DNA of 52,691 nucleotides from Candidatus Daviesbacteria bacterium. GTDB taxonomy: Bacteria > Patescibacteriota > Microgenomatia > Daviesbacterales > UBA10151. The stretch spans positions 1 through 52,691 of the forward strand of contig JACPEW010000003.1 of assembly GCA_016183305.1 (NCBI GenBank), written 5' to 3'. Numbering within the stretch: position 1 is the stretch's first letter; each line of letters starts with the position of its first letter. The notes under the pieces were generated by a model. That model did no database searches. It was not told where the DNA came from and saw only the letters and a program-made list of their open reading frames with translations. Position numbers and translations under genes: made by a program. Below, one piece after another: positions 6,223 through 38,506 of the stretch.

Positions 6223-6273
6223 ACTGGGTGAAACTAGAGATTTTACAGGTAACTTGTTAGAATATACAACGAT

Positions 6274-6345
6274 GGGCCGCTAGCTCAATGGTAGAGCACT
6301 TCCCTCTTAAGGAATAGGTTCTCGGTCCGAATCCGAGGCGGCTCA
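6274..6345 (+). tRNA. tRNA-Lys (CTT)
   Basis: Acceptor GGGCCGC/GCGGCTC, D-arm GCTC/GAGC, anticodon loop CT-CTT-AA, T-arm CTCGG/CCGAG with loop TCCGAAT; CCA not encoded. Confidence 0.93.
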
Positions 6346-6508
6346 CAGACAAGTTTTTAGACTCAGTGTAGTCTTCGTTTAGCTTGAATAGACAAGCTAA
6401 TTTGGATGTTCCAGACTTTAAATCATCATAAGCCGGTAGTTTTTTAAAAATCAACCCAAACATAGCAGCGTTTTGATGGGGATCAGGGCTTCCTAGCAGT
6501 AAATCTTT
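6346..6508 (-). pseudogene. C-terminal remnant of a probable site-specific (large serine) recombinase
   Basis: KDLLLGSPDPHQNAAMFGLIFKKLPAYDDLKSGTSKLACLFKLNEDY resembles, from memory, the C-termini of CPR tRNA-adjacent recombinases; it reads toward the tRNA and has an upstream in-frame stop. Confidence 0.45.
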
Positions 6509-23907: not shown

Positions 23908-24005
23908 GGAGTTTTTCAAACGGGAAGAAAAAAGGCCATTCACTTACCCGTCTATTGAAGAACGAAAAACAAGTCCTAATTATTTAAGCTGGATTATTGG
24001 TGTTG
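23908..24005 (+). repeat. 98-bp direct repeat, left copy
   Basis: Matches 30605-30702 with a single mismatch (ATTGAAG vs ATTGAGG). Confidence 0.92.
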
Positions 24006-24251
24006 ATGGAACTTTTTCTCAAGATAACGAACTGAATAGGTTGAGAGAGAAGAAAGCATTTCATATGTAGATCCCCAGAGAATATATTGCCGAAACAGCG
24101 AAAAGATTACTGCTTCTCTGTCTCTGCCATGATGATAGTTACGGGTTTTTTGACAGGAAGAACATCGGTAGCGTTTCTTACCAGAGACTGTCTTGCCCCA
24201 TGCAATGAGAACATTACTACAGGTTTTACAGAAAAGCCGTCTTTTTGCCAC
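24006..24251 (-). mobile_element. truncated transposase N-terminus (InsA-like zinc ribbon; IS1/IS256-type)
   Basis: CKTC...WGKTVSGKKRYRCSSC plus HTH-like helix; the frame ends on entering the 98-bp repeat; no DDE domain. Confidence 0.65.
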
Positions 24252-24393: not shown

Positions 24394-27300
24394 CTATTTT
24401 GCTTGGAGAGCTTCTGCAATCCCTGAATAACCAACTTTTTTAGCAAGGCGATCTATATAAAAGAAGTCTTTAACCAAAAGAGTAGTTTTTAGAGGAAACT
24501 TCAAACCCTCTTTTCTTAAAATAACTGCTAAACGCATTAGCCTATCTGTAGGATCTGATACTTGAGAGAGAGTTCCCGATTGCTCTATTACTCTTTGTCT
24601 AATTTCTTTACTTATTGCTGCACCTTGAGATTGGATATAATCAAGACATAATGTAGTTGCGTGAGGCGTGTTATTTAACGCTCCGACTAAATTCCTTAAA
24701 AAAAGTTTGTCTCTAAAACCAAATTCTTGATAATAGTTTCTATCAAGAAATACTACCTCATTACGAGGAGTAACTCTTATATTACCAGGGTGAATATCAG
24801 AGTGAACAAGACCATCTTTTACTTGTTCAATAAAGTTTTTAGCGACTAAAGAGGTTACTTGTCTTAAATCATGTCCTTGTTCCCTTAGTTTATCTAACTC
24901 GGTTAAATTTATACCATCAATAAATTCTTCTAAAGCAAAATATTTATTTTCAGGTTGATGAGAAGTTGGTACCTTAATTTTATATCTTCCACCAGTTGAG
25001 TAACCATTATGTTTTCTCTTAAACTCTCTATCCATTTCTAAAAATTCAGTAAAATCAATGTCTCCTCTTATCCATTCCTTTATATCATCAAGCATAGCGC
25101 CTGTGGGAGCGAAAGCCGAATCTCTTTCTGCTAGTGCAGTAAAAACTTCCGTTAATAGTTTATAAGTGGTATCGGTATGATGTCCTGCATTCGGATTTAA
25201 AATTTTAACTGCTAAATCTTGTCCGTCAGAAATAGTAGTTCTAAAAACGCTCATAAGAGATCCTCCACCTAATCGTTCGTTTAGACCAGCCAACCTTTCC
25301 CTTGCTTCTGGCCATTCTCTAAGTAAAGTCTGATGTGCTGTAATTTTAGATTGTCCACCCATTTTATCGTAAACTTGATTAAATGCTTGCTCTAAGTTCG
25401 GTGGCAATTCAACATATTGTCCTACTAATTGCAGGAATCGGACTCCAGGAGCACCTAGCTTTTGAGCCATTTCAAGCATAAATTCATTAACTGTCATTCT
25501 TTGTCGAGCAGGTAAAACTTCGGAGCCTCTTAATAAACCATCTACTGTGTCCTCATATTCGCGGCGCATTGCATCACTAACTTTAAATTCCTGTTGCTTC
25601 TCGCTGTTACCAGTAATAAATTGGAAAAGTTCATTGACATCATTTTCATCCACCTTTCTAACAGCTTTTGGCCTAATAAAATCTGATAGGTGTGTTGTTT
25701 GACTACTTTGTTTATTTTTATTTCCAACAAGCTCGCCGTTTTCATCTAGGTCGTAATAATCTGGACCCATTTCTTTCTCCCAGTATTCACCTAAATCCTC
25801 ATCTTTATCAAATTCCTCATGCGTTTCTAGCTCTTCGTATCCAAGTGGTGGTTCCTCAGTTCTTATAATGTCCAACCATGGAACCTGATTTGACGGAGGT
25901 ATTAACATTCTTTCCTGAATTATTGGAGAAATAGCAAAATACAAAAGGTCATAACTTGCTTTTCGAGCCACTTCCTGCATCACATCTCTTATAACTTTTA
26001 GGTATTTTTCTTCTGAGGCGTCACTGGCAACAACATAATTATCAAGGAAAAAATTAACAAACTCTAACCTTTGAGTTAAATCTTTATCGGTAAAGATTCC
26101 TTTGTCTCCTGTCAGCAAATCTCTTATTAAAACATATTTTGATTGAGCATCAAGTCGGTATAACCTATGCATTAAATCGTTAAGATGCACATTATCATAA
26201 CCCATACAAGCAACCCATTTTTTATATAAATACCTTTTTAAGTATCCATCATCTTCACCATTGCCTACACAAGCTAAGAGAAGTTCATATTTATTATCTA
26301 AGAAAAATTTTTGCACTAAATCCTCAGTCATAACAAGTTTACCGATACCCTCTAATGAAGAATCTTGAGTTAGCAAAGACAATAATCTTTGGCTTGCCAT
26401 TTCAATTTCCTCATGTGTTCTGGCATTTTGCTCAACAAAATCTGATACAGCTTTAAGTGAAAGCAGGCGTCGTCCATTTAACTCTTTTTCTAAAAATGCG
26501 AATCCTTCCTCGAACGACAACATTTTACTTAGTTCTCCCCAAATAACATTTTGTAGCCTTACAGCCAAACTATGATCTTCTAAATAGGTACTTAGGTAGT
26601 ACAGATCCTTAAGGTCTTGAATATTCCCAAAGTCAAACGTGTATGTTCTAAAAACCTCGCTAAGTAATGCTCTTTTTCTATCTGCAGATTCTGTGGTTAT
26701 ATTACTGTCTTCTAATCTATCAACGCCATAGTGATAGAATGGAAATTCGTTCGTTAGGGTTTCGAGCATTTTGCTAAAGTCAGCGCGTGAACCTGAACTT
26801 AGAGCTTTGTTTAATAAAACATATTTACCATGTTTGAAAAAATCCACCCAGTCTTCGTTCTTTTGTGGCCCAAATAAAGTATCTGTTGGAGAATCCACAC
26901 CAGTTTCTTTTACTAATGCGCTTTCATTTGATGCTAGATTATAAAAGTTTCGAAACCACTCAAGGTTAAATCCTTCATCTTTTAAATATTCACCAAATCT
27001 TTCATGAGGATTTAGCAAATTATTTGATGCATAATCATGAGCAAGCAGTAGCACAACTTTAAAATCAAATAGTCCCTTCTCTAATGGACTTGAAAAGTTA
27101 TTCAGTTGTGGAGTTTCTGAAACTATTTGCTCAACAAGTGAATTCCATTCATTATCACACAAAAGATGGTCGCCCCAAAGCTGCTCATCTGCTTGTATTG
27201 CTTTTCTAAAATTAGCAAGGAGTACTAATAGTTCATGAGGAGATTGAATCTGTTTTTCCTGAAGTATTTGCCTTAATTCTGGTAAATATTTATCCGTATC

Positions 27301-29034
27301 CATTTTTACATCGCTTCTTTCTCGTCCACCAAAAGCGCTTCTTAAATAAAAAGTATCTCTTTCACCATCAGATTTTTCCTTAGCGTCACGATATTCTGCA
27401 GAAAATCTTTTGAATAAATTAAATAATTTATCACCAGTTTCATGTTCGACTGCCTTTGTTTTCTCCTCGGCTTTTTTCTGCAACTCAATTTGTGCTGGTT
27501 TAACTTCCTGCATTCTTTGCAAAAGAATAGCTTTATCTGTTTTATCCAGATTGGCGTCTGCAACATCAATAATTCTCTGATAAACATCATCTGGGTTAGC
27601 TTTTACCGCGCCACGGTCTAAATAGAGCTGTCCGACTTTTGTAGCAAGAGACTCTGTAAATTGTAAAAATTCATTAACACGAAACTCATCCCCTTCAAAT
27701 ATAAATTTATCCATAGCAGCTTGAGCTATACCATCTACAAAACTGGCAGGAGATGCATTAAATCGTAATCCAAGTCCTTCAAATGTTTCTGGATTTAGAA
27801 CTTTGAGTAATTCATTCAAGTCTTCATCTTCGTATATTTGCTCATCTAAAGAAAATTTATCTTTTGTCCAAGGTGAAGCAATACCTTTTTGGGGATCAGT
27901 AACTTTGACCGAAGGATTAAAAACTAACTCCTGTTCTGTTGTGGCGTCTACACCTAAAGTCAAATTTAAAACAGAATGAAACAAAAAGTTTACTTGTTGA
28001 CTTGAGAGGGGTTGTCCTTCAAGTGTAGATTGTTTTGCTAATTCTTCCCAAATTTTTCTACTTAAAACTGGAGTAATACTTTTTTGAAAAGCAGCATAAT
28101 GATAATAACGATCTTTTCCTTCCGCTCTTGATCGATTGTGATGATACATAGGTATTACTGTTTGTAGAGCAACAAGAGCTTGATTTAAATCCATTTTATT
28201 GATCGTTTCAACAGATTTGAAATAAGAAACTTCGTTTACATATTTCATTAACTGGTCAAACGGAGAACTAACACCATTACTTGATTGTTCTTGAGCGATA
28301 GCATCTTTTACTTCTTGTGGTATTTGATGCAATGGTTCCTCAATGGATTTCAAATCTTTTAAATAAGTCATTACTCTTAAGTTAAGCGCTCTGTCTGTGG
28401 ACTTACCATGTACTAGACCACCTGATAATTTAGGGTTTTGTCTGAATTTTTCCATTAGTTCGATTCCTCCCATTGGGTTAATGCTTAATTTATCAACTTC
28501 AGTAAATGCCTTTATATCTCCTTCCCATTCATGAACTCTTTGTTGTCCAGGACCACCAAATACGAGGTCACTAAGTGTTCTCTCTTGATCTTCTGCGCGT
28601 TGAAACACTTTTTCGGAATGGGCTTCTACATGATGTATTCTCTCGTGCATGAGAACGAACAAAATTTCTTCATTTGTACCAGCAAGTTTAATCAACTGAT
28701 CGCTTAAATAAACGGAGCCACTGGGGAATATAAAAGCATTTGGTTCTCCTTTATAAACAGTTATTCGAGGTCTTTCTTGATCTGGAGCGCCACCGATTCT
28801 TTGGAGTGAGTGCTGGGCATAAACGGATACCGGATGATCTGTAGGATAGATCCCTAATCTGGCTCTAATTTTCCACTCGGCATATTCTCCAGCATTGTGG
28901 AATTGTTCTTGACTAAATTGTTCACCATTTGTTTTTTCTCCATTAGCGACTTGGAGTTCAGCAACAACTTCCATAGAATATACTTGGTCTAAACTAGAAG
29001 CCCCTAGTCTACTTCTTTCAGCCTCTATACTCAT
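24394..29034 (-). CDS. 1546-aa fusion of N-terminal M48-like metallopeptidase and C-terminal ABC1/UbiB-like atypical kinase
   Basis: PNAFIFPSGSVYLS, LMHERIHH, HEWEGD near the N-terminus; LGGGSLMSVF, AVKILNP, DIDFTE, HSDIHPGNI, VFLD near the C-terminus. Confidence 0.85.
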   Translation of the reverse strand: MSIEAERSRLGASSLDQVYSMEVVAELQVANGEKTNGEQFSQEQFHNAGEYAEWKIRARLGIYPTDHPVSVYAQHSLQRIGGAPDQERPRITVYKGEPNAFIFPSGSVYLSDQLIKLAGTNEEILFVLMHERIHHVEAHSEKVFQRAEDQERTLSDLVFGGPGQQRVHEWEGDIKAFTEVDKLSINPMGGIELMEKFRQNPKLSGGLVHGKSTDRALNLRVMTYLKDLKSIEEPLHQIPQEVKDAIAQEQSSNGVSSPFDQLMKYVNEVSYFKSVETINKMDLNQALVALQTVIPMYHHNRSRAEGKDRYYHYAAFQKSITPVLSRKIWEELAKQSTLEGQPLSSQQVNFLFHSVLNLTLGVDATTEQELVFNPSVKVTDPQKGIASPWTKDKFSLDEQIYEDEDLNELLKVLNPETFEGLGLRFNASPASFVDGIAQAAMDKFIFEGDEFRVNEFLQFTESLATKVGQLYLDRGAVKANPDDVYQRIIDVADANLDKTDKAILLQRMQEVKPAQIELQKKAEEKTKAVEHETGDKLFNLFKRFSAEYRDAKEKSDGERDTFYLRSAFGGRERSDVKMDTDKYLPELRQILQEKQIQSPHELLVLLANFRKAIQADEQLWGDHLLCDNEWNSLVEQIVSETPQLNNFSSPLEKGLFDFKVVLLLAHDYASNNLLNPHERFGEYLKDEGFNLEWFRNFYNLASNESALVKETGVDSPTDTLFGPQKNEDWVDFFKHGKYVLLNKALSSGSRADFSKMLETLTNEFPFYHYGVDRLEDSNITTESADRKRALLSEVFRTYTFDFGNIQDLKDLYYLSTYLEDHSLAVRLQNVIWGELSKMLSFEEGFAFLEKELNGRRLLSLKAVSDFVEQNARTHEEIEMASQRLLSLLTQDSSLEGIGKLVMTEDLVQKFFLDNKYELLLACVGNGEDDGYLKRYLYKKWVACMGYDNVHLNDLMHRLYRLDAQSKYVLIRDLLTGDKGIFTDKDLTQRLEFVNFFLDNYVVASDASEEKYLKVIRDVMQEVARKASYDLLYFAISPIIQERMLIPPSNQVPWLDIIRTEEPPLGYEELETHEEFDKDEDLGEYWEKEMGPDYYDLDENGELVGNKNKQSSQTTHLSDFIRPKAVRKVDENDVNELFQFITGNSEKQQEFKVSDAMRREYEDTVDGLLRGSEVLPARQRMTVNEFMLEMAQKLGAPGVRFLQLVGQYVELPPNLEQAFNQVYDKMGGQSKITAHQTLLREWPEARERLAGLNERLGGGSLMSVFRTTISDGQDLAVKILNPNAGHHTDTTYKLLTEVFTALAERDSAFAPTGAMLDDIKEWIRGDIDFTEFLEMDREFKRKHNGYSTGGRYKIKVPTSHQPENKYFALEEFIDGINLTELDKLREQGHDLRQVTSLVAKNFIEQVKDGLVHSDIHPGNIRVTPRNEVVFLDRNYYQEFGFRDKLFLRNLVGALNNTPHATTLCLDYIQSQGAAISKEIRQRVIEQSGTLSQVSDPTDRLMRLAVILRKEGLKFPLKTTLLVKDFFYIDRLAKKVGYSGIAEALQAK

Positions 29035-29128: not shown

Positions 29129-30576
29129 ATGCAATTTCAAGATGTTAAACCGACAACTTTTTCAGACCCGTCTAGCCACTGGCGCAACGAAACAAACGCC
29201 TTTGACGCTAGTTTAACTTCTTTTGCAGATAACCAGCCAAAACCTAAAATTCCAAACTATGTCCAATTCTCCGGACAAACTATAAACCTTAGAGCAAATG
29301 AAGCAATCTTCGGGGTGCGCCTATCTCTTAAACTTGGGACATCTGGTTTTGTGAATGATACTTGGGAAGTAAAACTTATAAACGGAGCAACCACAAGACG
29401 ACTTTGGACTGGTATTGTCTCCATTACTGACCCTACAACTTTTGAATGGGAAGTCTTGGCCAATATTCTAACAACAGATGGTCTATGGATAAAAACAGAT
29501 TTTGAAAATATGGCCATCCGTATTGGCCCTGTTTCTGCGGTTGCTTCTCAAGACAGCGTAACAATTAAAATTTATGATATTTCTTACAGAGTTTTTACTT
29601 ACAGCACTCAAACACAAAGTTTACTGACTGTTTATTCCACTGCCTCTTTAGACGGCGATATTACCGATAATCCACCTGTTAATGGGCTTGGCGATACAGT
29701 AGATAGTATCTCTCCAAATTTCTGGGTTGGTGATCGCTCAACAAATGGCTCATGGCGGGGTTTTGTATCCTTTCCTATTACCGAACTTCCGGCAAATGCC
29801 GTAATTGATGATGTGCAAATGGACTTTTCGTTAGACTTATCTTATGGGGACGGCTTGTCTGGACAAGATCAAGTTCCTCATGGATTAGGTAGCTGTAAAA
29901 TGGATTAGGTAGCTGTAAAGTATATCATGTTGACTTTGGAGCGTCTCTTGACGCCTCTGATTATCAAACAACACCTCTTACATCAAATATAGGAATTCTG
30001 GTATTGCAAGAGGAATTCTTACAAGGATATTATGATTTTGCCGAGCCAAATACTTGGCAATGGCGGGGAATTGATGCTTTAGGCTTGTATATTCAAAATG
30101 ATTATAATGCTGGCAGGCCACGTTCTCAATTTAGGATTAAGTGGGATAACGCAACAGATAATGACAGCAAACACGACTACTTAGCGATTTTATCGAATGA
30201 CTTTGCAACAGACTCTCCCAGATATTCTCCAAGGCTTAGAATCGTTTATCATATTGAAACCCCGCCTCCCTCTTGGAATAAACCATACGGATTTTATGAT
30301 TACATGGCCTTGAAAGTGCGCGGGCGCTTAGGATATATTGCTACCTTTCAGGAGCAATGGTGGGGGCGTCAAGTATCACCGCCTTTTTATCCTTATAATC
30401 CGCAAACTTATTATCAACAAAGCTGGCGATCCGTCTTTACCCAAAGGGTAGATAACTGGCTGGGATTTAATGAAACTGTCAAAGGTCAATATAAGGAAAA
30501 GGCTAAAAACTTAATAATGACCGGCTTTAATTTTTACCTTTCAGAATACTTAAACGCCAATTACCCGCCTTGGTAA
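29129..30576 (+). pseudogene. beta-rich protein with DNRLRE-like domain, frameshifted by a 20-bp tandem duplication
   Basis: WVGDRSTNGSWRGFVSFPITELPANAVID. Removing one 20-bp copy joins ORFs 29033-29908 and 30004-30576 into one frame (about 475 aa from ATG 29129). Confidence 0.75.
29880..29919 (+). repeat. perfect 20-bp tandem duplication
   Basis: ATGGATTAGGTAGCTGTAAA twice (29880-29899, 29900-29919). Confidence 0.95.
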
Positions 30577-30593
30577 AAAACTGATAAAATAAA

Positions 30594-30746
30594 ATGCAGA
30601 TGAGGGAGTTTTTCAAACGGGAAGAAAAAAGGCCATTCACTTACCCGTCTATTGAGGAACGAAAAACAAGTCCTAATTATTTAAGCTGGATTATTGGTGT
30701 TGTTTTATTGATTGCTGTCGTAATTACCACCTTCCTTATTTTCTAA
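30594..30746 (+). CDS. 50-aa single-pass membrane protein (below the ORF-track cutoff)
   Basis: MQMREFFKREEKRPFTYPSIEERKTSPNYLSWIIGVVLLIAVVITTFLIF*; contains the right 98-bp repeat. Confidence 0.55.
   Translation: MQMREFFKREEKRPFTYPSIEERKTSPNYLSWIIGVVLLIAVVITTFLIF
30605..30702 (+). repeat. 98-bp direct repeat, right copy
   Basis: See 23908-24005. Confidence 0.92.
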
Positions 30747-30766: not shown

Positions 30767-33700
30767 TTAGCGACACCTAATAAAGAGGTAATAGCCTGTG
30801 CCTGAAATTATCAGAATTACCACTGCCATCCATGGCCAGTTTCTTTGAGCGAAAGATCCTACTTCTTGTGAGTTTTCTGTTGGTATAGTCTCTACCCCTT
30901 TTACAGTTCCCTCTTGTCCCTTCTCTTCCTTGTCTTGTTGTTGATCAGGTTGATCAGTCGACTCTCCCAATACTCCTTCTTCAAAACCTGTGGCAGGGGC
31001 TGTAATAAATACGCCTGCTGGTGTGGCAGAAACTTCGTTTGAAAAGTCTCCAGGCGTACAACCATTTCCGGCTCTTACTTTAAAGTAATAGGTCTTTCCC
31101 CCGGACAAACCCTGAACAGTATAAGAAGTAGTACCCTTTCCACCTATATTAGGGTTGCCATATTGCACTATTCCGGAAGATGTACCATAAGCCACCAAGT
31201 AATAAGTAACAGGATCTTTCGCTTCTGACCAGGTTAGGGTAACACTGTTAACCCCGCTAGCAACAACAGATAATAGTGTAGGTGCGTTGCCAGGCTTTTG
31301 ATCGCTGCATGAAGCGCTACTACTGCCGCCTCCATCAGAGCTTGAGGAATTGCTGGTAGAGGATGCAATTGTGGTTTGGGTATAAGTCGCAAATTTAGTA
31401 AAATGCTTGGTCCAAATAACCAAATCAGAACCAGCATCAATTTTACACTCACCATCAGTTACCAAGGCATCACCTGCTGTCTGATTGTCTGCGGAACACG
31501 TGCTGCTAATTTCAGTAAATGCTATTCCTGTTCTGATATAGCCTGCCCTTTTGCCTGCTTGCCCCGGAAGCAAAATCCTCACAGCTTTATCAAAAGATAA
31601 TTTTGCGCCAGTAAATCCTATTTCAATAGCCGTACTTACAGTTTTGGTTTCTCCCGAAGTCTCCGGCAAAGTTACAACTGTAACAGTTGGGGCTGCAATT
31701 ACTCCATTCCAAGTGGTATCCGCGCTAGTAACGATAGTAGAAGCTGGAATAACTATGTTTGCTTTCTCAGAATCAATGGTAATCTTCGGAAGTGTTCCTG
31801 TTCCCTCTGAAATGAATGAACCTACATCAATTATCGGATCGGTTGTCTCACTGCCAATAGTTATATTTACTGCTTGAGTTGGGTTAGTAATTACAACTTG
31901 GGGAGTTTTATTATCAACAGTGACAGCACCTTCAGAATCTGGAGCTTTTTGGTTAGATGCTAAAGCAGAATCAACTAGCAATAAATCCGTTAAATTGCCA
32001 GCAATATCTGAAACATTAACCACAACGTCATTGGCAAAAGTTGGTATTTCAGTGGTAGTTATTGTTAAAGTTCCCCCCGACCATGAATAAGTTAAAGCTT
32101 TATCCGCTCCTGCAGTCAGAGCATTTTCAACTACTGCCTTGGAATTATTTGATAAGACTTCAGAGAAAACTAAATTAATATTACCAGGGCTTAATAAAAC
32201 AACATCCGCAGAACCGTTACCAAGTTTTGTAACTGTGGGAGCAGTTGTATCGACCACTAATTGATCTGTAGAGGTTGAGCTTTGATTGCCTGTATTATCT
32301 TGGGCTCCGACTATAAAATTCCAAACACCCTGGAGCAAACTGGTAGATGCAGAGAGAATGTTGCCAGCTGTTGTTCCGGAATCTACTATTTGACTGTTAG
32401 CATTATTAACAACTGACCAGAAATAGGATGCTACCCCTGATAAAGTATCTGTTGCAGCTGTCCAATTCCAAGTTTGAATGGTTGAGTTGGTTGGGTTTGG
32501 AGAGGTAGATGGAGTACCAGGAATAGTTGGTGCAGTTGAATCAATCGTAAAGTTAGCATTGGACAAATCTGTTCCTGTAACGTCGTCTGGGTCAGTTACA
32601 ACAGCTTTTATTTTAACAGTTGAGGAATTTAATGAATCAACTGAATCCCATGTATAATCTCCGGTGTTAGTTAATCCTGTATCAATTTTAGTAAAATCAA
32701 TCTCATTAGTTGTGTAATACAAGTCAATAACTAGGTCTTCAGAATCATTATCAGTATCTGATGCATTCCATGTAATATCATGACTGCTGTCTCCAGCCCA
32801 TATTTCTCCGCCGTTTGGTGAAGCTACAGTAATTGTTGGCGCATCATTAACAGCATTAACTGTGATATTTATTGTTGCTGTATTACTGTTTACCGATCCA
32901 TCATTAACTCTGAAGGTAAAGGAATCTGAACCATTGTAATTAGCTGCTGGCGTATAAGTTACTGAGTTTCCAGAAACAGCACTCAAACTTCCATGACTTG
33001 GACCAGCAACTATAGAATAAGTTAAAGTGTTTGCAGGTAAATCAGCATCCGTAGCAGAGAGTGTTATTACTTTAGCTGTATCCTCATCTGTAGTTTGTGT
33101 GGAACCTGAAGCAACAGGCGCAATATTTACCTCATTAACAGTAACTACAATTTCCTCTGAAACATTAGTTCCTGTAGAGCTTGAAACAGATATTGTAAAT
33201 GTATAAGTATTTGGACCTTGAGCTTCTGTAGGAGTCCAACTGAATGTTCCTGTTGAAGAATTAATAGTGGCACCAGTTGGGGCTCCAATTAGTGAAAATG
33301 TAAGGGTCCCACCTTCTTCATCATCTGCCTCTGCTGTAAAGGTCAATTCACTTCCTTCATTAACCGATTTATTTCCAATAGGATTTAAACTTAATGGAGC
33401 ATTATTTACAGTGACAGTTTTACTTGTATCTGTAATCGAGTTGCCTGCTGGATCAGTTATTATAATTCTAATTGTATAAATACCCTCGGATACAAAAGCA
33501 TCAGAATTATTTTTACCATCCCAAGTTTTAGGAGTAGGGTTTGTAACGCTAGCAGAAGAGTATAAATCTCTTATCTTGGTACCTGTGGAATTTAGTATAT
33601 CTACATCGGCTTCAACAGCTTCCGAGAATAATAAGTCTAAAGTAGTAGTATCTTTTATACCAACACTAGCTTCCGGTGAAATCCTAATATTATCTAAAAT

Positions 33701-36700
33701 ATAGGTTTCAATAACCGGATTTACTGAATCAAAAATAATAGTGTCAGAGATAATGCCACTTATATTACCTGCTCCATCAATTAATTTAACTTGTATAGTT
33801 CTTGTTCCTTGAGTGTTTGGTAAGGTGTAAGAATAGGAACTTGAATAGGTTGCATTTGTACCAAAGACAGAATCTCCGTCAGCAGTTTGAATTTGGGTAA
33901 CATCGGATGAAACTCCACTAAAGTTGAGTGTAACACCAGTTAAATTGGTATAAGCAACAGCATTATTAATTGTAAATGCTCCTGTAGGAGCAACAATGTC
34001 TTGAATTGCTGTTGGCTGGGATGTTGCAGAACTTACATTTCCAGCAGCATCTGTAGCTGTAACTGAAGGAGTGATTGAGCCATCAACTAATGCCCCGGGT
34101 GCAGCAGCAGTACCATCAATAGTAATAGAGAAGTTAGTACCTCCTCCAGTAAGCTGTTGTGTCCCACTTTTGCTATTAGTTCCGTCGCTCAATGTGACTG
34201 AAACAAGGGAATTTGCTTCTGCAGTACCAGTAACAACTATTGCAGCTTTTTCTGAATTATTAATTTTATTATCCGTTGAGATATTATTAACGGTTGGCGC
34301 AGAAGGAGCGGCTGTATCTTGAGTAACATTTGATGTTGTAGGATTACTGGTATTTCCGGCAGCATCTGTAGCTGTAACTGATGTATTAATGGTTCCATCA
34401 ATTAAGTCCGTTCCTGCTGTTCCATCAATTGTGATTGAAAAGTTACCGCTTCCATTAGCTGAACCGGTATTAGTTTTAGTTGTATTAGCACTATCAGTTA
34501 AAGTAACTGTAACTGAACTATTTGCTTCTGCTATTCCAGCAACTATAATTGCTGCTTTCTCAACATTATTGATTTTGTTATCCGTTGCAACATTGGAAAT
34601 AACAGGAGCACCTGGGTTTGTTTTATCAAAAGTTATTGATGTATTATCCCCGGTTGTACTAATTTCAGATCCAGGGTTACCCGCTAAGTCATTAAAGTTA
34701 ATAGTAAATAGCACTGTTCCACTAGCATCTCCATTAGCCATCTGATAATCCGCCCTCCAGTTATTATCACCTGTGTTTGATACTGAAGCTGTATTTCCAG
34801 CAATGGCTACTATGGGAATTTGAATAGCTTCATTTGATGTGAAACTTACTGTAACCATATTTCCAACTTTTGCTAAGGCATTACTATTTGAATTGTTAGA
34901 ACTTATAGAAACAGCGCTTAATGTTGGAGTTGTAACATCTTTAGTCGCAGTGTCAGAACCTGCGCTACCAGAGTTTCCGGCTGCATCTGTCAAAGTTATA
35001 GAGGCAGTCAAAGTTCCTTCATTTAATCCTGAAACATCAATACCGCTAACATTTATTGATCCATTACCCGCAACGCTACCAGTTCCTGTAATAGCTGCAT
35101 TAACACCATCTGTAATAGAATAAGTGAAATCATTGTTTGCTTCCCCTGTTCCTGTAAGAGTTACTGCTGTTTTATTTGAATTATTGATTGGGCTTGTCAG
35201 ATTTACTGAAGTTGGAGCATCTGGAGCAGTCGTTTCAATAGTAACACTTAAAACGTCAGAGGCAACAGAAGTGTTTCCAGTAGCATCTGTGGCTTTAGCC
35301 GTTAAACTGTGGGTACCAGCTGCTAAGGTAATATCAAATGACCAATTACCACCAGTAGCTGTTGTAGTACCTTTTGAAGTTACTCCGTCAAAAAGTTCAA
35401 CAGTACTGTTGGCTTCAGCAGTACCAGAGAAAGTAAGACCTGCTGTCTGATTGGTAATATTATCCGAATTAGATATACCTGTATCATCAGAAGCAGCTAA
35501 ATCTGGCGTTGATGGAGTATTAGGAGCAGTAGCATCGTAAGCAAATGAAACTCCGGAAATATTGGCAGTATTTCCTGCGCTATCAGTAATGACAACCTGC
35601 AAATTATATGTTGTATTTGTTGTAAGTGTTACACTTGTCCAGTCAGCCTGATAAGGTGCTACTGTGTCTGTGTTAAGATCAATAAAGGTACTGTCTGAAC
35701 TTGCTTTGTATTGAAACTTCACTGAAGAAACAGCCGTATTAGCATCACTGGCTGAAGCTGTAAAAGCAGGTATAACATTATGAGAAGAATTATTCACTGG
35801 TGCAGTGATTGAACCAGTAGAAACTGTAGTATCAACAGTAACAGAACCTGTAGTAGTGGCTGACTGATTACCAGCATTATCTTTAGCATTAACTATTAAA
35901 TTCCACACTCCTTGCAATAAGTTAGTTACTAAAGACGTATTAGTAGTGGTGCCAGTATCGAAGAGTGTATTAGTAGCAGCATTAATAATAGACCAAAGGT
36001 AGGTTATAGTTCCGGCAATATTATCTGTTGATGTTGTCCAATTCCAAGTTTGAGTAGTCTGATTTGTAGGCGAAGAAGGGGATGGTATGGGTGTTCCTGG
36101 AACAGCAGGATTAGTGTTATCTATAACCGCAGAAACAGTCACTACATCACTTTCAATTCCTGAGCTATTCTTAGCTTGTACATGTATATAATAAGTTCCG
36201 TTTCCAGAACCTTGCGTTGCTGTAACTGTGCTAAAGTAATCTCCTGACGGGGTCCAGGAGGATGACTGGTTAATTGCAAACCTAAAAGTGGCAGTAGAAT
36301 CTGTAGAACTCCAGTTCCAGGTTTTTGATTTTGTAGAACTGGTATCATCGGACAGACCAGATATCACTGGTCCATTAGTAGCAAGAAGGGCATTGTATGC
36401 ATTAATTCGTTTTCCCGAAACTGTCTTGCCACTCAAGGAAGCCTTCGCATCACCCGTGTTTAAGATAATACTTTTTACTTGGGAATAAGTTCTGGAAGAA
36501 TTCTGGCTCCAAATTAAAGCTGCTAAACCAGCGGCATGGGGAGCAGCCATGGAAGTGCCATCCTTGAATTCATATAATTCACTTGAGCCAAGAGTATGTT
36601 TGGTAATAAGAATATCGTCTACATTACAACCTTCACCAATGGTACCTGTACTCGTATCCGCATCAGTTACCCAATGTAATCTAAATTTAAAATTGCTTGT

Positions 36701-38506
36701 AAAGTAGTTCGTAGGAATAGTTGGCGTCAAATAGAAAACAGCTTTTCCATTAGTATTGTTACTTTCAATTAAGTCATCATCCAGGAAAGCTTCATCCCAT
36801 TTCATTATTTCTGTAAAATCAGTTCCATTGCTGCTTACTTCTAAAGCCATGTAGTCATGCCAACCGTCAGTAATGTATTCCGTATCACAAACTGCAAAGA
36901 AACCCATATCTACCCCAGAAGCTCCGGATAAGTTATAAGTTGCAGAAGTTACAGTTGAATCCGCATTACTGGTATAAGGTAAAGTTAAATCTCCATATAA
37001 AACTTTACCCCAAATCTGATCTCCAAAATCATAGGTTCCCCAATTTCCTGTTTTTGCCCAACCACTAGGAATGGCTGGAGGTACTACTGATGTAAACGGT
37101 TCGTTTAATACTTCGGCGCTTAAAATATCTGCCATAGTGCTGTAAATATTTACTCCGGGAGCTGCTACATCAACAGAGGTTGCACCATAGTTAGAGAAGT
37201 CTGCCAAGGTATCATTTTGATCAGTAGCAGTCACGGAAATAATGTTATCGAGATCATAATCGGACGGATAGGAATGGGTTCCTGCATCGTTATTTACAGA
37301 TTCATTTCCGGCAGCAGTAATAAATATTCCTCCTGCAGTTTTAAAACGGTTAATAGCGTCATACTCTAATTGAGAAAATGAACCCGTATAACTAGCATTA
37401 ATTATTTTTGCCCCATTTTGTATTGCAAAATCAATAGCCTTAACTCCGGAGGCAACATCAAAACCAAATTTTAAAGCCATTATTTTTACGGATGGAGCAA
37501 CACCAATAATACCTTTATTATTATTTTTTACTGCTGCAATAGTCCCAGCCAGATGGGTACCATGGGAACTATTGGAAGGAAGAGGTGTTTTATCATTTTC
37601 TTCAAAATCATATCCATGATTACAGTCATTAAGCGCACCCCCATTTTCATCCTTACAGCTCGCACCATCCCACATATTAGCTTGTAAATCAGGATGATTA
37701 TAGTCAACTCCGCTATCTATGACGGCTACAACAACACCACTATTCCCTTCAGATATGCCCCATGCCTCTGGAGAATCCATATCTGCATCACTCGTTCCGC
37801 CAACTCCATTTACAGCTTGACCAATATTGTCCAGTCCCCATAATCTATCTTTAAAAGTATCGTTAGTAGAAATAGTAGCGGGAGTGCGGATATAATTCGG
37901 CTCTGCATACTGTACGCTTGAATCATCCTCTAACCTATTAATTGCACTTTCAACAGATTCTCCTTTTGTTTCCAGAACTACCACATTGCTTTTTTCTATC
38001 GTTTCTTCAAGGTCTAGTTTTTTAGCTTCGGCAAATTGTTTTGCTTTTGTAATGCTATTTGCTTCTTTTAAATTTATTTTATTTTCTTTAAATTTAACCA
38101 ATACTTGTCCTTCAACATAATTTTTATTGCTACCTTTTTTAATTTTCTTCTCAGAAGGGACTGGTCTAATGGTTGATTTCCCGGATAAAGAAGCACTAGC
38201 GGAAGTTTCAGTTTCATTACTTATGTCTAAAATTGGAGTAGGTGAAGGGTCTGGTGTAGCAGTTGCTTCTGGTGAGGGTTCAGGATTGGGCGATGGTTCA
38301 ACCGGGGCGCTTGGTGGTGTTGATTCTTCAGTTGGAGAAGGTATTGGCGACGTTGAAGGTTCTGGTAAAGATTCTTCTGTCGTCGAACCTGCTATGGCGC
38401 TTTCTGTTGCTTCTTGTGCAAAAACTGGAGGAATAAAAAAAGCAATCTGGTAAAAAACCAGAAGAGAAATTAGAAAAACGGATAAAAACTTTTTAAATAC
38501 TTTCAT
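30767..38506 (-). CDS. giant surface S8 serine protease-adhesin (2579 aa)
   Basis: Signal peptide, P/E linker, triad VIDSG / SHGTHLAG / GTSMAAPH, many D.TAP Ig-like repeats, cadherin/tandem-95-like repeats, FN3 (YYFKVRAGNGC), C-terminal TM. Confidence 0.92.
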   Translation of the reverse strand: MKVFKKFLSVFLISLLVFYQIAFFIPPVFAQEATESAIAGSTTEESLPEPSTSPIPSPTEESTPPSAPVEPSPNPEPSPEATATPDPSPTPILDISNETETSASASLSGKSTIRPVPSEKKIKKGSNKNYVEGQVLVKFKENKINLKEANSITKAKQFAEAKKLDLEETIEKSNVVVLETKGESVESAINRLEDDSSVQYAEPNYIRTPATISTNDTFKDRLWGLDNIGQAVNGVGGTSDADMDSPEAWGISEGNSGVVVAVIDSGVDYNHPDLQANMWDGASCKDENGGALNDCNHGYDFEENDKTPLPSNSSHGTHLAGTIAAVKNNNKGIIGVAPSVKIMALKFGFDVASGVKAIDFAIQNGAKIINASYTGSFSQLEYDAINRFKTAGGIFITAAGNESVNNDAGTHSYPSDYDLDNIISVTATDQNDTLADFSNYGATSVDVAAPGVNIYSTMADILSAEVLNEPFTSVVPPAIPSGWAKTGNWGTYDFGDQIWGKVLYGDLTLPYTSNADSTVTSATYNLSGASGVDMGFFAVCDTEYITDGWHDYMALEVSSNGTDFTEIMKWDEAFLDDDLIESNNTNGKAVFYLTPTIPTNYFTSNFKFRLHWVTDADTSTGTIGEGCNVDDILITKHTLGSSELYEFKDGTSMAAPHAAGLAALIWSQNSSRTYSQVKSIILNTGDAKASLSGKTVSGKRINAYNALLATNGPVISGLSDDTSSTKSKTWNWSSTDSTATFRFAINQSSSWTPSGDYFSTVTATQGSGNGTYYIHVQAKNSSGIESDVVTVSAVIDNTNPAVPGTPIPSPSSPTNQTTQTWNWTTSTDNIAGTITYLWSIINAATNTLFDTGTTTNTSLVTNLLQGVWNLIVNAKDNAGNQSATTTGSVTVDTTVSTGSITAPVNNSSHNVIPAFTASASDANTAVSSVKFQYKASSDSTFIDLNTDTVAPYQADWTSVTLTTNTTYNLQVVITDSAGNTANISGVSFAYDATAPNTPSTPDLAASDDTGISNSDNITNQTAGLTFSGTAEANSTVELFDGVTSKGTTTATGGNWSFDITLAAGTHSLTAKATDATGNTSVASDVLSVTIETTAPDAPTSVNLTSPINNSNKTAVTLTGTGEANNDFTYSITDGVNAAITGTGSVAGNGSINVSGIDVSGLNEGTLTASITLTDAAGNSGSAGSDTATKDVTTPTLSAVSISSNNSNSNALAKVGNMVTVSFTSNEAIQIPIVAIAGNTASVSNTGDNNWRADYQMANGDASGTVLFTINFNDLAGNPGSEISTTGDNTSITFDKTNPGAPVISNVATDNKINNVEKAAIIVAGIAEANSSVTVTLTDSANTTKTNTGSANGSGNFSITIDGTAGTDLIDGTINTSVTATDAAGNTSNPTTSNVTQDTAAPSAPTVNNISTDNKINNSEKAAIVVTGTAEANSLVSVTLSDGTNSKSGTQQLTGGGTNFSITIDGTAAAPGALVDGSITPSVTATDAAGNVSSATSQPTAIQDIVAPTGAFTINNAVAYTNLTGVTLNFSGVSSDVTQIQTADGDSVFGTNATYSSSYSYTLPNTQGTRTIQVKLIDGAGNISGIISDTIIFDSVNPVIETYILDNIRISPEASVGIKDTTTLDLLFSEAVEADVDILNSTGTKIRDLYSSASVTNPTPKTWDGKNNSDAFVSEGIYTIRIIITDPAGNSITDTSKTVTVNNAPLSLNPIGNKSVNEGSELTFTAEADDEEGGTLTFSLIGAPTGATINSSTGTFSWTPTEAQGPNTYTFTISVSSSTGTNVSEEIVVTVNEVNIAPVASGSTQTTDEDTAKVITLSATDADLPANTLTYSIVAGPSHGSLSAVSGNSVTYTPAANYNGSDSFTFRVNDGSVNSNTATINITVNAVNDAPTITVASPNGGEIWAGDSSHDITWNASDTDNDSEDLVIDLYYTTNEIDFTKIDTGLTNTGDYTWDSVDSLNSSTVKIKAVVTDPDDVTGTDLSNANFTIDSTAPTIPGTPSTSPNPTNSTIQTWNWTAATDTLSGVASYFWSVVNNANSQIVDSGTTAGNILSASTSLLQGVWNFIVGAQDNTGNQSSTSTDQLVVDTTAPTVTKLGNGSADVVLLSPGNINLVFSEVLSNNSKAVVENALTAGADKALTYSWSGGTLTITTTEIPTFANDVVVNVSDIAGNLTDLLLVDSALASNQKAPDSEGAVTVDNKTPQVVITNPTQAVNITIGSETTDPIIDVGSFISEGTGTLPKITIDSEKANIVIPASTIVTSADTTWNGVIAAPTVTVVTLPETSGETKTVSTAIEIGFTGAKLSFDKAVRILLPGQAGKRAGYIRTGIAFTEISSTCSADNQTAGDALVTDGECKIDAGSDLVIWTKHFTKFATYTQTTIASSTSNSSSSDGGGSSSASCSDQKPGNAPTLLSVVASGVNSVTLTWSEAKDPVTYYLVAYGTSSGIVQYGNPNIGGKGTTSYTVQGLSGGKTYYFKVRAGNGCTPGDFSNEVSATPAGVFITAPATGFEEGVLGESTDQPDQQQDKEEKGQEGTVKGVETIPTENSQEVGSFAQRNWPWMAVVILIISGTGYYLFIRCR

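Follow-up and report, generated by a model that had tools for sequence, protein, structure and literature searches.

What is a protein for that carries a zinc peptidase at one end, a kinase-like domain of the UbiB/ABC1 fold at the other, and some 800 helical residues in between? The question is posed by one gene of Candidatus Daviesbacteria, located at positions 24394-29034 of contig JACPEW010000003.1 (assembly GCA_016183305.1); the first 52,691 nucleotides (nt) of that contig were analyzed here and are called the window throughout. A first-pass annotation, made from the letters alone, had given the extent of this open reading frame (ORF) correctly, and its strand is amended here to minus. The frame is intact, begins with ATG and encodes 1,546 amino acids (aa) followed by a stop, and its start region is kept among homologues as MS..E. 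Pfam recognizes two domains, Peptidase_M48 (residues 83-141; 35.5 bits against a cut-off of 20.3) and ABC1 (residues 1255-1453; 80 bits against a cut-off of 22.9). The protein opens with an M48 peptidase domain (approximately residues 40-240); an all-helical scaffold of some 820 aa follows, and a disordered linker rich in acidic residues leads from there to a domain of UbiB/ABC1 fold (residues 1151-1546).

Most of what the first-pass annotation had described was borne out. The UbiB/ABC1-type kinase with DRN at the DFG position is there, as the Pfam score attests, and the triplet reads D1431-R1432-N1433; the peptidase motif is likewise present, and the several "HExxH motifs" announced for the first 250 residues reduce to a single HERIH at residues 130-134. 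The middle, said to be helical and acidic, is modeled as helical and is moderately acidic in composition (16% D+E against 12% K+R in the scaffold). Finally, the claim that the protein has neither a signal peptide nor a clear transmembrane segment holds: no such feature was found in the window protein, whose highest Kyte-Doolittle mean over 19 residues is just 1.0, a value that argues against any membrane helix or signal peptide. Comparison with the closest relative (86.6% nucleotide identity) gives a ratio of nonsynonymous to synonymous substitution (dN/dS) of 0.13 over 1,508 codons, and the window gene is under purifying selection. As judged from sequence and predicted structure, its product is best explained as a cytoplasmically made, soluble, self-contained two-enzyme protein with two predicted activities.

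Family size and architecture

A word-based search returned 10 full-length relatives at 24-88% identity from independent assemblies, among them a 158-kb Daviesbacteria contig. All 10 carry the ABC1 domain and nine carry M48, the tenth being without its N-terminus as called. When a profile of just the middle region, from which all M48 and ABC1 columns had been left out, was used for an exhaustive search, 209 representatives of 50%-identity clusters were recovered (E <= 1e-3). Profiles were then built for N, M and C (peptidase, conserved middle module and kinase-like domain, respectively) and scanned against a set of 156 proteins, made up of 150 of these 209 representatives, the window protein and its closest homologues. 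In 124 of the 156, all three parts occur in the same N-scaffold-C order, with a median length of 1,497 aa and a median spacing from N to M of 537 aa (range 382-650). Among 32 diverse members Pfam finds only M48 (in 30) and ABC1 (in 28). The M48-UbiB architecture is far beyond chance, and the layout of the family, as profiles and models predict it, is fixed: an M48 domain, about 540 variable helical residues, a conserved module of about 280 aa, an acidic linker and an atypical UbiB-fold domain. The earlier concern that the two domains might occur only separately is answered by their standing together in more than 100 divergent proteins, with the catalytic residues, whose placement had also been questioned, in place and conserved. 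An assembly chimera is rejected, as the same architecture recurs in independent assemblies. Database entries call these proteins "M48 family metalloprotease", "AarF/UbiB family protein" or "hypothetical", and no description of an M48-UbiB fusion was found in the literature searched. Both domains are known; the family that fuses them is real, large and undescribed.

Two kinds of variant depart from this plan in size. A class of approximately 740-885 aa (P0047, P0067, P0069, P0094, P0100, P0105 and P0128) starts with Met and contains the module M and the UbiB-like domain only; these proteins lack the peptidase and may represent split or free-standing versions. At the other extreme, Sec-type signal peptides occur in approximately 12 of the 124 members, including most of the proteins of 2,200-5,200 aa in which the complete N-M-C cassette is embedded. 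Two of these super-giants add either a CheR-type and a class I methyltransferase together with an APH phosphotransferase, or a superfamily 1 (SF1) helicase with TPR. Super-giant relatives with Sec-type signal peptides include P0092 (4,541 aa), P0032 (4,329 aa) and P0028 (3,119 aa, Omnitrophota), and NCBI labels one super-giant cluster Omnitrophota. Given that the enzymes of the super-giants require ATP or S-adenosylmethionine (SAM), an exported form would make sense only inside another cell.

Peptidase, scaffold and kinase-like domain

The peptidase domain passes the Pfam cut-off for PF01435 and has both an HExxH motif and a downstream Glu ligand, as expected of M48. Against the PDB, the family profile matches 3c37, a soluble M48 enzyme of Geobacter, at E 1.6e-13 and BepA at approximately 1e-6, and E169, within the sequence EWEGD, aligns with the EYENQAD Glu-ligand motif of 3c37. 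Conservation over the 124 proteins is close to complete at H130 (100%), E131 (99%) and H134 (100%), and extends to E169 (100%), D173 (99%), R166 (99%) and the pair H209-G210 (97-98%). Such a pattern is the one expected of an active enzyme, as far as residue conservation can predict activity, and H209 may be a fourth zinc ligand or a regulatory His. A membrane M48 enzyme of the HtpX/Ste24 type is rejected, since the sequence is free of hydrophobic segments and is matched best by M48 enzymes of the soluble kind.

The middle of the protein, modeled with AlphaFold2 (AF2) at a mean predicted local distance difference test (pLDDT) of 77, is all-helical to approximately residue 1060 and gives way there to the linker, modeled with low confidence, in which 25 acidic residues face 9 basic ones. 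Foldseek searches of the PDB and of the viral models in BFVD returned generic alpha-solenoids only, with template modeling (TM) scores below 0.2, and yielded no fold relative for the scaffold. The module M, by which the family was collected, is present in all full-length members and in the M-C-only forms of approximately 800 aa.

The AF2 model of the kinase-like domain has a mean pLDDT of 76 and a predicted TM score (pTM) of 0.75, and its top 12 Foldseek matches are all of the UbiB family, led by COQ8A (4ped; E 1e-11, TM 0.58-0.60), MSMEG_1954 and Rv3197. Among solved structures, Rv3197 is the nearest in sequence, at an E value of only 3e-3, and the domain is thus divergent. Its membership of PF03109 is seen in the Pfam score, in the UbiB-type fold and in the presence of the Lys, the HxDxxxxN loop and the metal-binding Asp; the AAAS triad is not found. 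UbiB proper is a different matter: the match to the equivalog TIGR01982 is 71 bits against a cut-off of 487, and among the NCBIfam models UbiB-type matches are sub-threshold only. At the window locus there is neither a membrane anchor nor any quinone-pathway neighbor. The giant protein holds the sole ABC1 domain of its genome, and a UbiA-family prenyltransferase match elsewhere in that genome is uninformative about quinones.

Departures of this domain from UbiB lie at defined positions and are shared by the family. A profile alignment (hhalign) with the UbiB of Sphingobium places GGGS at AAAS, F1331 at the alphaC Glu and DRN at DLG. The RFLQ sequence (residues 1199-1202) was aligned by hand with KLGQ of the same protein, at a similar spacing to the nucleotide loop; aligned in this way across the 113 full-length members, the KxGQ-equivalent keeps its Gln in 113 and has Arg for Lys in 109, and its Gly is not kept. 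In the catalytic loop, position 1413 is Asp in 103 of the 113 and position 1418 is Asn in 110. The Phe at the alphaC position is invariant, so that the Glu which pairs with the Lys in UbiB is missing; D1335, one helical turn further on and conserved in 102 of 113, may substitute for it. As D1431 is retained in 112 and R1432 in 108 of the 113, DRN is a hallmark of the family and not a sign of decay, and a degenerate pseudokinase on account of DRN is rejected. The Ala triad and the KxGQ domain are hallmarks of ABC1 proteins; in COQ8A the exchange A339G raises ATP binding and autophosphorylation, and in COQ8 a water molecule held by the Gln of KxGQ is a candidate nucleophile for the ATPase reaction (PMC8956952; bioRxiv 10.1101/149823). 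We infer from the conserved residues that this UbiB-like clade is probably catalytically active and possibly biased toward phosphotransfer.

Table 1. Coordinates of the giant gene, its domains and motifs, and nearby features in the window
Feature	Position	Strand	Basis or remark
Whole gene	24394..29034	-	1,546 aa + stop; intact, purifying selection
Soluble BepA/3c37-like M48 zinc peptidase domain, ~residues 40-240	28315..28917	-	Pfam, PDB profile matches, family conservation
HExxH, H130-E131-R-I-H134; zinc ligands and catalytic base (predicted)	28633..28647	-	Conservation in 124 proteins
E169 in EWEGD, predicted third zinc ligand	28528..28530	-	3c37 alignment; 100% of 124
H209-G210, near-invariant His-Gly	28405..28410	-	97-98% conserved
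All-helical scaffold, residues 241-1060	25855..28314	-	AF2; without specific fold relative
Conserved family-defining module M, residues 780-1060, shortly before the kinase-like domain	25855..26697	-	Common to 209 representatives
Acidic, variable linker, residues 1061-1150	25585..25854	-	pLDDT <50, variable alignment length, composition
UbiB/ABC1-fold kinase-like domain, residues 1151-1546	24397..25584	-	Pfam; Foldseek
R1199-F-L-Q1202, counterpart of UbiB KxGQ	25429..25440	-	Manual alignment; Q 113/113, R 109/113
GGGS nucleotide loop replacing UbiB Ala triad AAAS	25258..25269	-	hhalign; near-invariant in family
K1277, ATP-binding lysine (VAIK equivalent)	25204..25206	-	94 K + 12 R of 113
Catalytic loop HSDIHPGN (D1413, N1418)	24781..24804	-	Alignment and family conservation
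D1431-R1432-N1433 at DFG position, metal-binding Asp kept	24736..24744	-	D 112/113, R 108/113
Left copy of 98-nt direct repeat	23908..24005	+	97/98 identical to right copy
Right copy of 98-nt direct repeat, inside 50-aa membrane-peptide ORF 30594-30746	30605..30702	+	97/98 identical
85-aa Zn-ribbon ORF like a transposase N-terminus	23994..24251	-	phrog_1191, E 3.6e-5
Divergent neighbor within repeat-flanked segment, ORFs of 291 aa and 190 aa	29033..30576	+	Halves of one broken gene

Distribution and genomic settings

The family-specific middle profile detects a member in three of 401 genomes sampled across the phylum. With the window protein as a single-sequence query, a full-length close homologue was found in one of 60 relatives and in none of 18 genomes of the same genus. 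A pattern scan of one genome per species located full-length N-M-C proteins in metagenome-assembled genomes (MAGs) labeled, by their depositors, as Levyibacteriota, Deltaproteobacteria, a Micrarchaeota archaeon, Pseudomonadota, Omnitrophota and Gammaproteobacteria. The gene is thus a rare accessory gene scattered over phyla and over both prokaryotic domains. This patchy scatter, as read from the distribution, would be a product of horizontal transfer. In the Micrarchaeota MAG (L026, 4656-9077) the full-length member adjoins a spermidine synthase and a Cbf5-type pseudouridine synthase with PUA; as the latter is the archaeal form of TruB, the locus is probably truly archaeal, and this member points to transfer between bacteria and archaea.

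Some relatives sit beside genes of mobile elements. In three nearby lineages of the Candidate Phyla Radiation (CPR) the gene adjoins an XRE regulator and a large serine recombinase, and it is the largest gene of a recombinase-bearing element of approximately 12 kb. Two of the three also have a DUF87/TrwB-type ATPase (approximately 975 aa) and a Replic_Relax-like protein, the latter recognized by Pfam in L001 (Daviesbacteria) and, in L007, where the protein has no Pfam match, assigned via BLAST to that of L001. To the extent that such elements can be predicted from gene content, recombinase, TrwB-like and relaxase-like genes in this arrangement make up a small integrative element that is possibly transferable. 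Element genes are not found nearby at the majority of loci, namely the window, L005, L009-L012 and L024-L030. Over 17 loci the gene has no conserved partner gene. In one relative (L011, 2100-7509) it begins 10 nt after a same-strand gene of the MreB family. Searches of PADLOC-DB 2.0 returned only weak kinase-core matches to PD-T4-6 (E approximately 7e-4, over 40 residues), and a known defense system is rejected, there being no PADLOC model beyond this generic kinase similarity.

In the window, the giant gene lies in a 6.7-kb segment bounded by the 98-nt direct repeats, which are the only two copies in the genome. The 50-aa ORF that contains the right copy has one membrane helix; the left copy is without the start codon and the tail of that ORF. 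The 85-aa Zn-ribbon ORF ends inside the left repeat and so looks like a truncated relic. The divergent neighbor was a gene for approximately 507 aa, broken by a 20-nt tandem duplication at 29880-29919 (ATGGATTAGGTAGCTGTAAA, two copies) that shifts its frame; Pfam, PHROG and PADLOC gave no match for either half. Two genomes of the same genus keep the adjacent operon of response regulator, histidine kinase, HlyD, ABC and MacB genes (RR-HK-HlyD-ABC-MacB); at the corresponding site both are without the giant gene and have unrelated genes upstream. The region upstream of the conserved operon is not syntenic, and no clean empty site could be demonstrated in these congeners. The closest relative (L048, 522-5099) shares the giant gene alone, homology breaking 53 nt inside its 5' end and 64 nt past its stop, so conservation and movement concern the gene by itself; for the same reason the repeat-bounded segment is not supported as the mobile unit. 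The frame of this relative is open over 1,525 codons with no ATG, GTG or TTG near the 5' end, where homology breaks, and its start may be non-canonical or lost.

Two further observations concern other parts of the window. A 68-aa ORF at 6257-6463 (minus strand), which overlaps tRNA-Lys at 6274-6346, matches the L001 serine recombinase over 47 residues (47% identity, E 5e-10) and may be the relic of a recombinase at a tRNA integration site. Adjoining the repeat-flanked segment, at 30767-38506 (minus strand), a gene encodes a secreted S8 subtilase of 2,579 aa. Its prodomain is of the fervidolysin type, it has many domains of the Ig-like, cadherin-like and FN3 kinds, and a membrane anchor is present at the C-terminus.

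Possible roles and known systems

Tentatively, and while stopping short of calling it probable, we favor a reading in which the M48-UbiB protein takes part in conflicts that set organisms or genetic elements against one another; a host-dependent cell or a mobile element would use it as an effector acting in trans or as a weapon of "polyvalent-type". This reading draws upon the rare scatter across phyla, the mobile-element settings, the repeat-flanked position of the window gene, and the relatives that bear signal peptides or are fused to helicase, methyltransferase or APH domains. The same observations lend support to the two-activity effector or defense protein that the first-pass annotation had envisaged, an idea that sits less well with the lack of a match to known defense systems and with the many housekeeping neighborhoods. 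A course of action may be proposed as follows: the UbiB-like domain would bind ATP through its glycine-rich loop and RxLQ (in place of AAAS and KxGQ), and would phosphorylate a target or itself, or serve as an ATP-driven switch; the helical scaffold would grip the target; and the M48 domain would cut either the target or the protein's own linker, freeing the modules.

Several points weigh against a role in conflict. A signal peptide is missing from the window copy, which has no link to any system of secretion or delivery. No full-length member was found in collections of cultured phages or plasmids, which hold stand-alone UbiB genes only. Over the 17 loci there is no conserved neighbor, and many relatives lie among housekeeping genes (ppk1, truB, and those for spermidine synthase and D-Ala-D-Ala carboxypeptidase). 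The M48 domain belongs to the classical M48 clade and falls outside the peptidase clades of polyvalent proteins, and with an invariant Phe in place of the alphaC Glu, catalysis by the kinase-like domain may be unconventional. Last, the 98-nt repeats, which come without a recombinase and are not seen in the closest relative, may reflect a local rearrangement and not a moving unit.

The strict conservation of both centers and of the spacing between the domains would also suit a protein that works for its own cell. An ATP-gated protease of protein or membrane quality control can be envisaged, similar in its logic to energy-dependent proteases: a hydrophobic ligand or client would be sensed or extracted by the UbiB-fold ATPase, which would then license a latent M48 domain via the scaffold. 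M48 enzymes of the BepA type have a part in the quality control of envelope proteins, and the housekeeping neighborhoods of many relatives, as well as the status of this ABC1 domain as the only one in its genome, are in keeping with such a role. So are the invariant Gln of the KxGQ-equivalent, a residue tied to the ATPase chemistry of COQ8 (bioRxiv 10.1101/149823), and the plastoglobules of plants, which hold ABC1K proteins and PGM48 together (PMC8956952). We nevertheless consider this role unlikely for a gene present in less than 1% of the genomes of the phylum and absent from congeners, whose product has no membrane anchor or lipid-binding feature and whose relatives are found in mobile-element settings, with signal peptides, and as helicase or methyltransferase fusions.

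Less likely again is a single-gene abortive-infection defense against phages or plasmids, in which the scaffold would sense the invader and the kinase-like and protease domains would stop the cell or inactivate invader proteins. A rare, patchy, partner-free gene carried on mobile elements would fit this description, large proteins that combine sensor and effector are common in defense systems, and the weak matches to PD-T4-6 models are at least at the level of the kinase. Beyond that generic similarity, however, no PADLOC model applies, no defense-island neighbors were seen at the loci examined, and Sec signal peptides in approximately 10% of members are ill-suited to a cytoplasmic sensor. That the gene is instead a functional part of small integrative elements, for example an establishment or anti-restriction factor of which the window copy is a stranded remnant, we regard as very unlikely: its place as the largest gene of a serine-recombinase element in three lineages (with the TrwB-like ATPase and relaxase-like protein in two), the recombinase-like relic by tRNA-Lys, and the transposase stub and broken gene inside the repeat-flanked segment speak for it, but most loci have no element genes nearby and purifying selection persists without them.

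It is conceivable, if doubtful, that the family represents a new ATP-dependent proteolytic machine, in which a UbiB fold, and not an AAA+ ring, gates or aims an M48 peptidase over a scaffold of approximately 800 residues, and which serves microbes that depend on a host (CPR, DPANN, Omnitrophota, intracellular proteobacteria), as well as their mobile elements, as an effector in trans. Were this the case, the fusion would be a "Rosetta stone" for an ancient functional pair of UbiB/ABC1 and soluble M48 proteins, and a tractable soluble model for the enigmatic UbiB family. UbiB/ABC1/COQ8 proteins are ancient, linked to disease and poorly understood in their biochemistry, and it is debated if their action is that of a kinase, an ATPase or an extractor of lipids. 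A divergent and constrained UbiB fold in a soluble, protease-fused protein provides a system in which to ask what such folds can do. The glycine-rich loop of the family is similar to the exchange by which COQ8A mutants gain phosphotransfer. The fusion hints that enzymes of the UbiB type and of M48 are connected in function. The interaction proteins of small-genome, host-dependent microbes are almost unknown, and if the conflict/effector reading is right, a large, unannotated family of weapons exists among these organisms.

Of known proteins, the kinase-like domain is most readily compared with UbiB/ABC1/ADCK proteins. It shares with COQ8A (4ped, 5i35), MSMEG_1954 (7cyr) and Rv3197/MABP-1 (5yjz) the fold, a helical N-extension with an invariant Gln as aligned by hand, the Lys, HxDxHPGN and the metal-binding Asp, and differs from them in having GGGS for AAAS, RxLQ for KxGQ, DRN for DFG and the alphaC Phe; the window protein as a whole, unlike theirs, is fused to a protease and has no membrane anchor or quinone-pathway context. 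The ABC1K proteins and PGM48 of plant plastoglobules offer an analogy only, namely the same two enzyme families co-located in function (PMC8956952). They are separate, lipid-droplet-bound plastid proteins, and the scaffold has no known homology there. To our knowledge, no fusion of ABC1K and PGM48 occurs in plastoglobules.

The peptidase domain finds its counterparts in 3c37 and in BepA/YfgC of E. coli (6ait, 6sar), which are soluble, have no membrane helices and show the same HExxH with a downstream Glu ligand; BepA, moreover, likewise couples its peptidase to a helical (TPR) domain. BepA is a periplasmic protein of approximately 490 aa with a signal peptide, whereas the peptidase described here forms the N-terminus of a cytoplasmic protein of 1,546 aa, with a far larger, non-TPR scaffold and an ATP-using domain. 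With respect to overall organization, a comparison can be drawn with the polyvalent proteins of Iyer, Burroughs, Anand, de Souza and Aravind (2017; PMC5512222). The survey of these proteins lists neither M48 nor ABC1, and their kinases are of a truncated Ser/Thr/Tyr clade (PMC5512222); most loci of the M48-UbiB family, furthermore, lie outside recognizable phages or conjugative elements, with flanking element genes in three lineages. What the two groups have in common is a giant, multi-enzyme build centered on a zincin, sometimes with kinases, helicases or methyltransferases, and an association with mobile DNA, seen in part of the M48-UbiB family; no domain is more frequent in polyvalent proteins than the zincin peptidase, whose predicted task is the processing of the polyprotein (PMC5512222).

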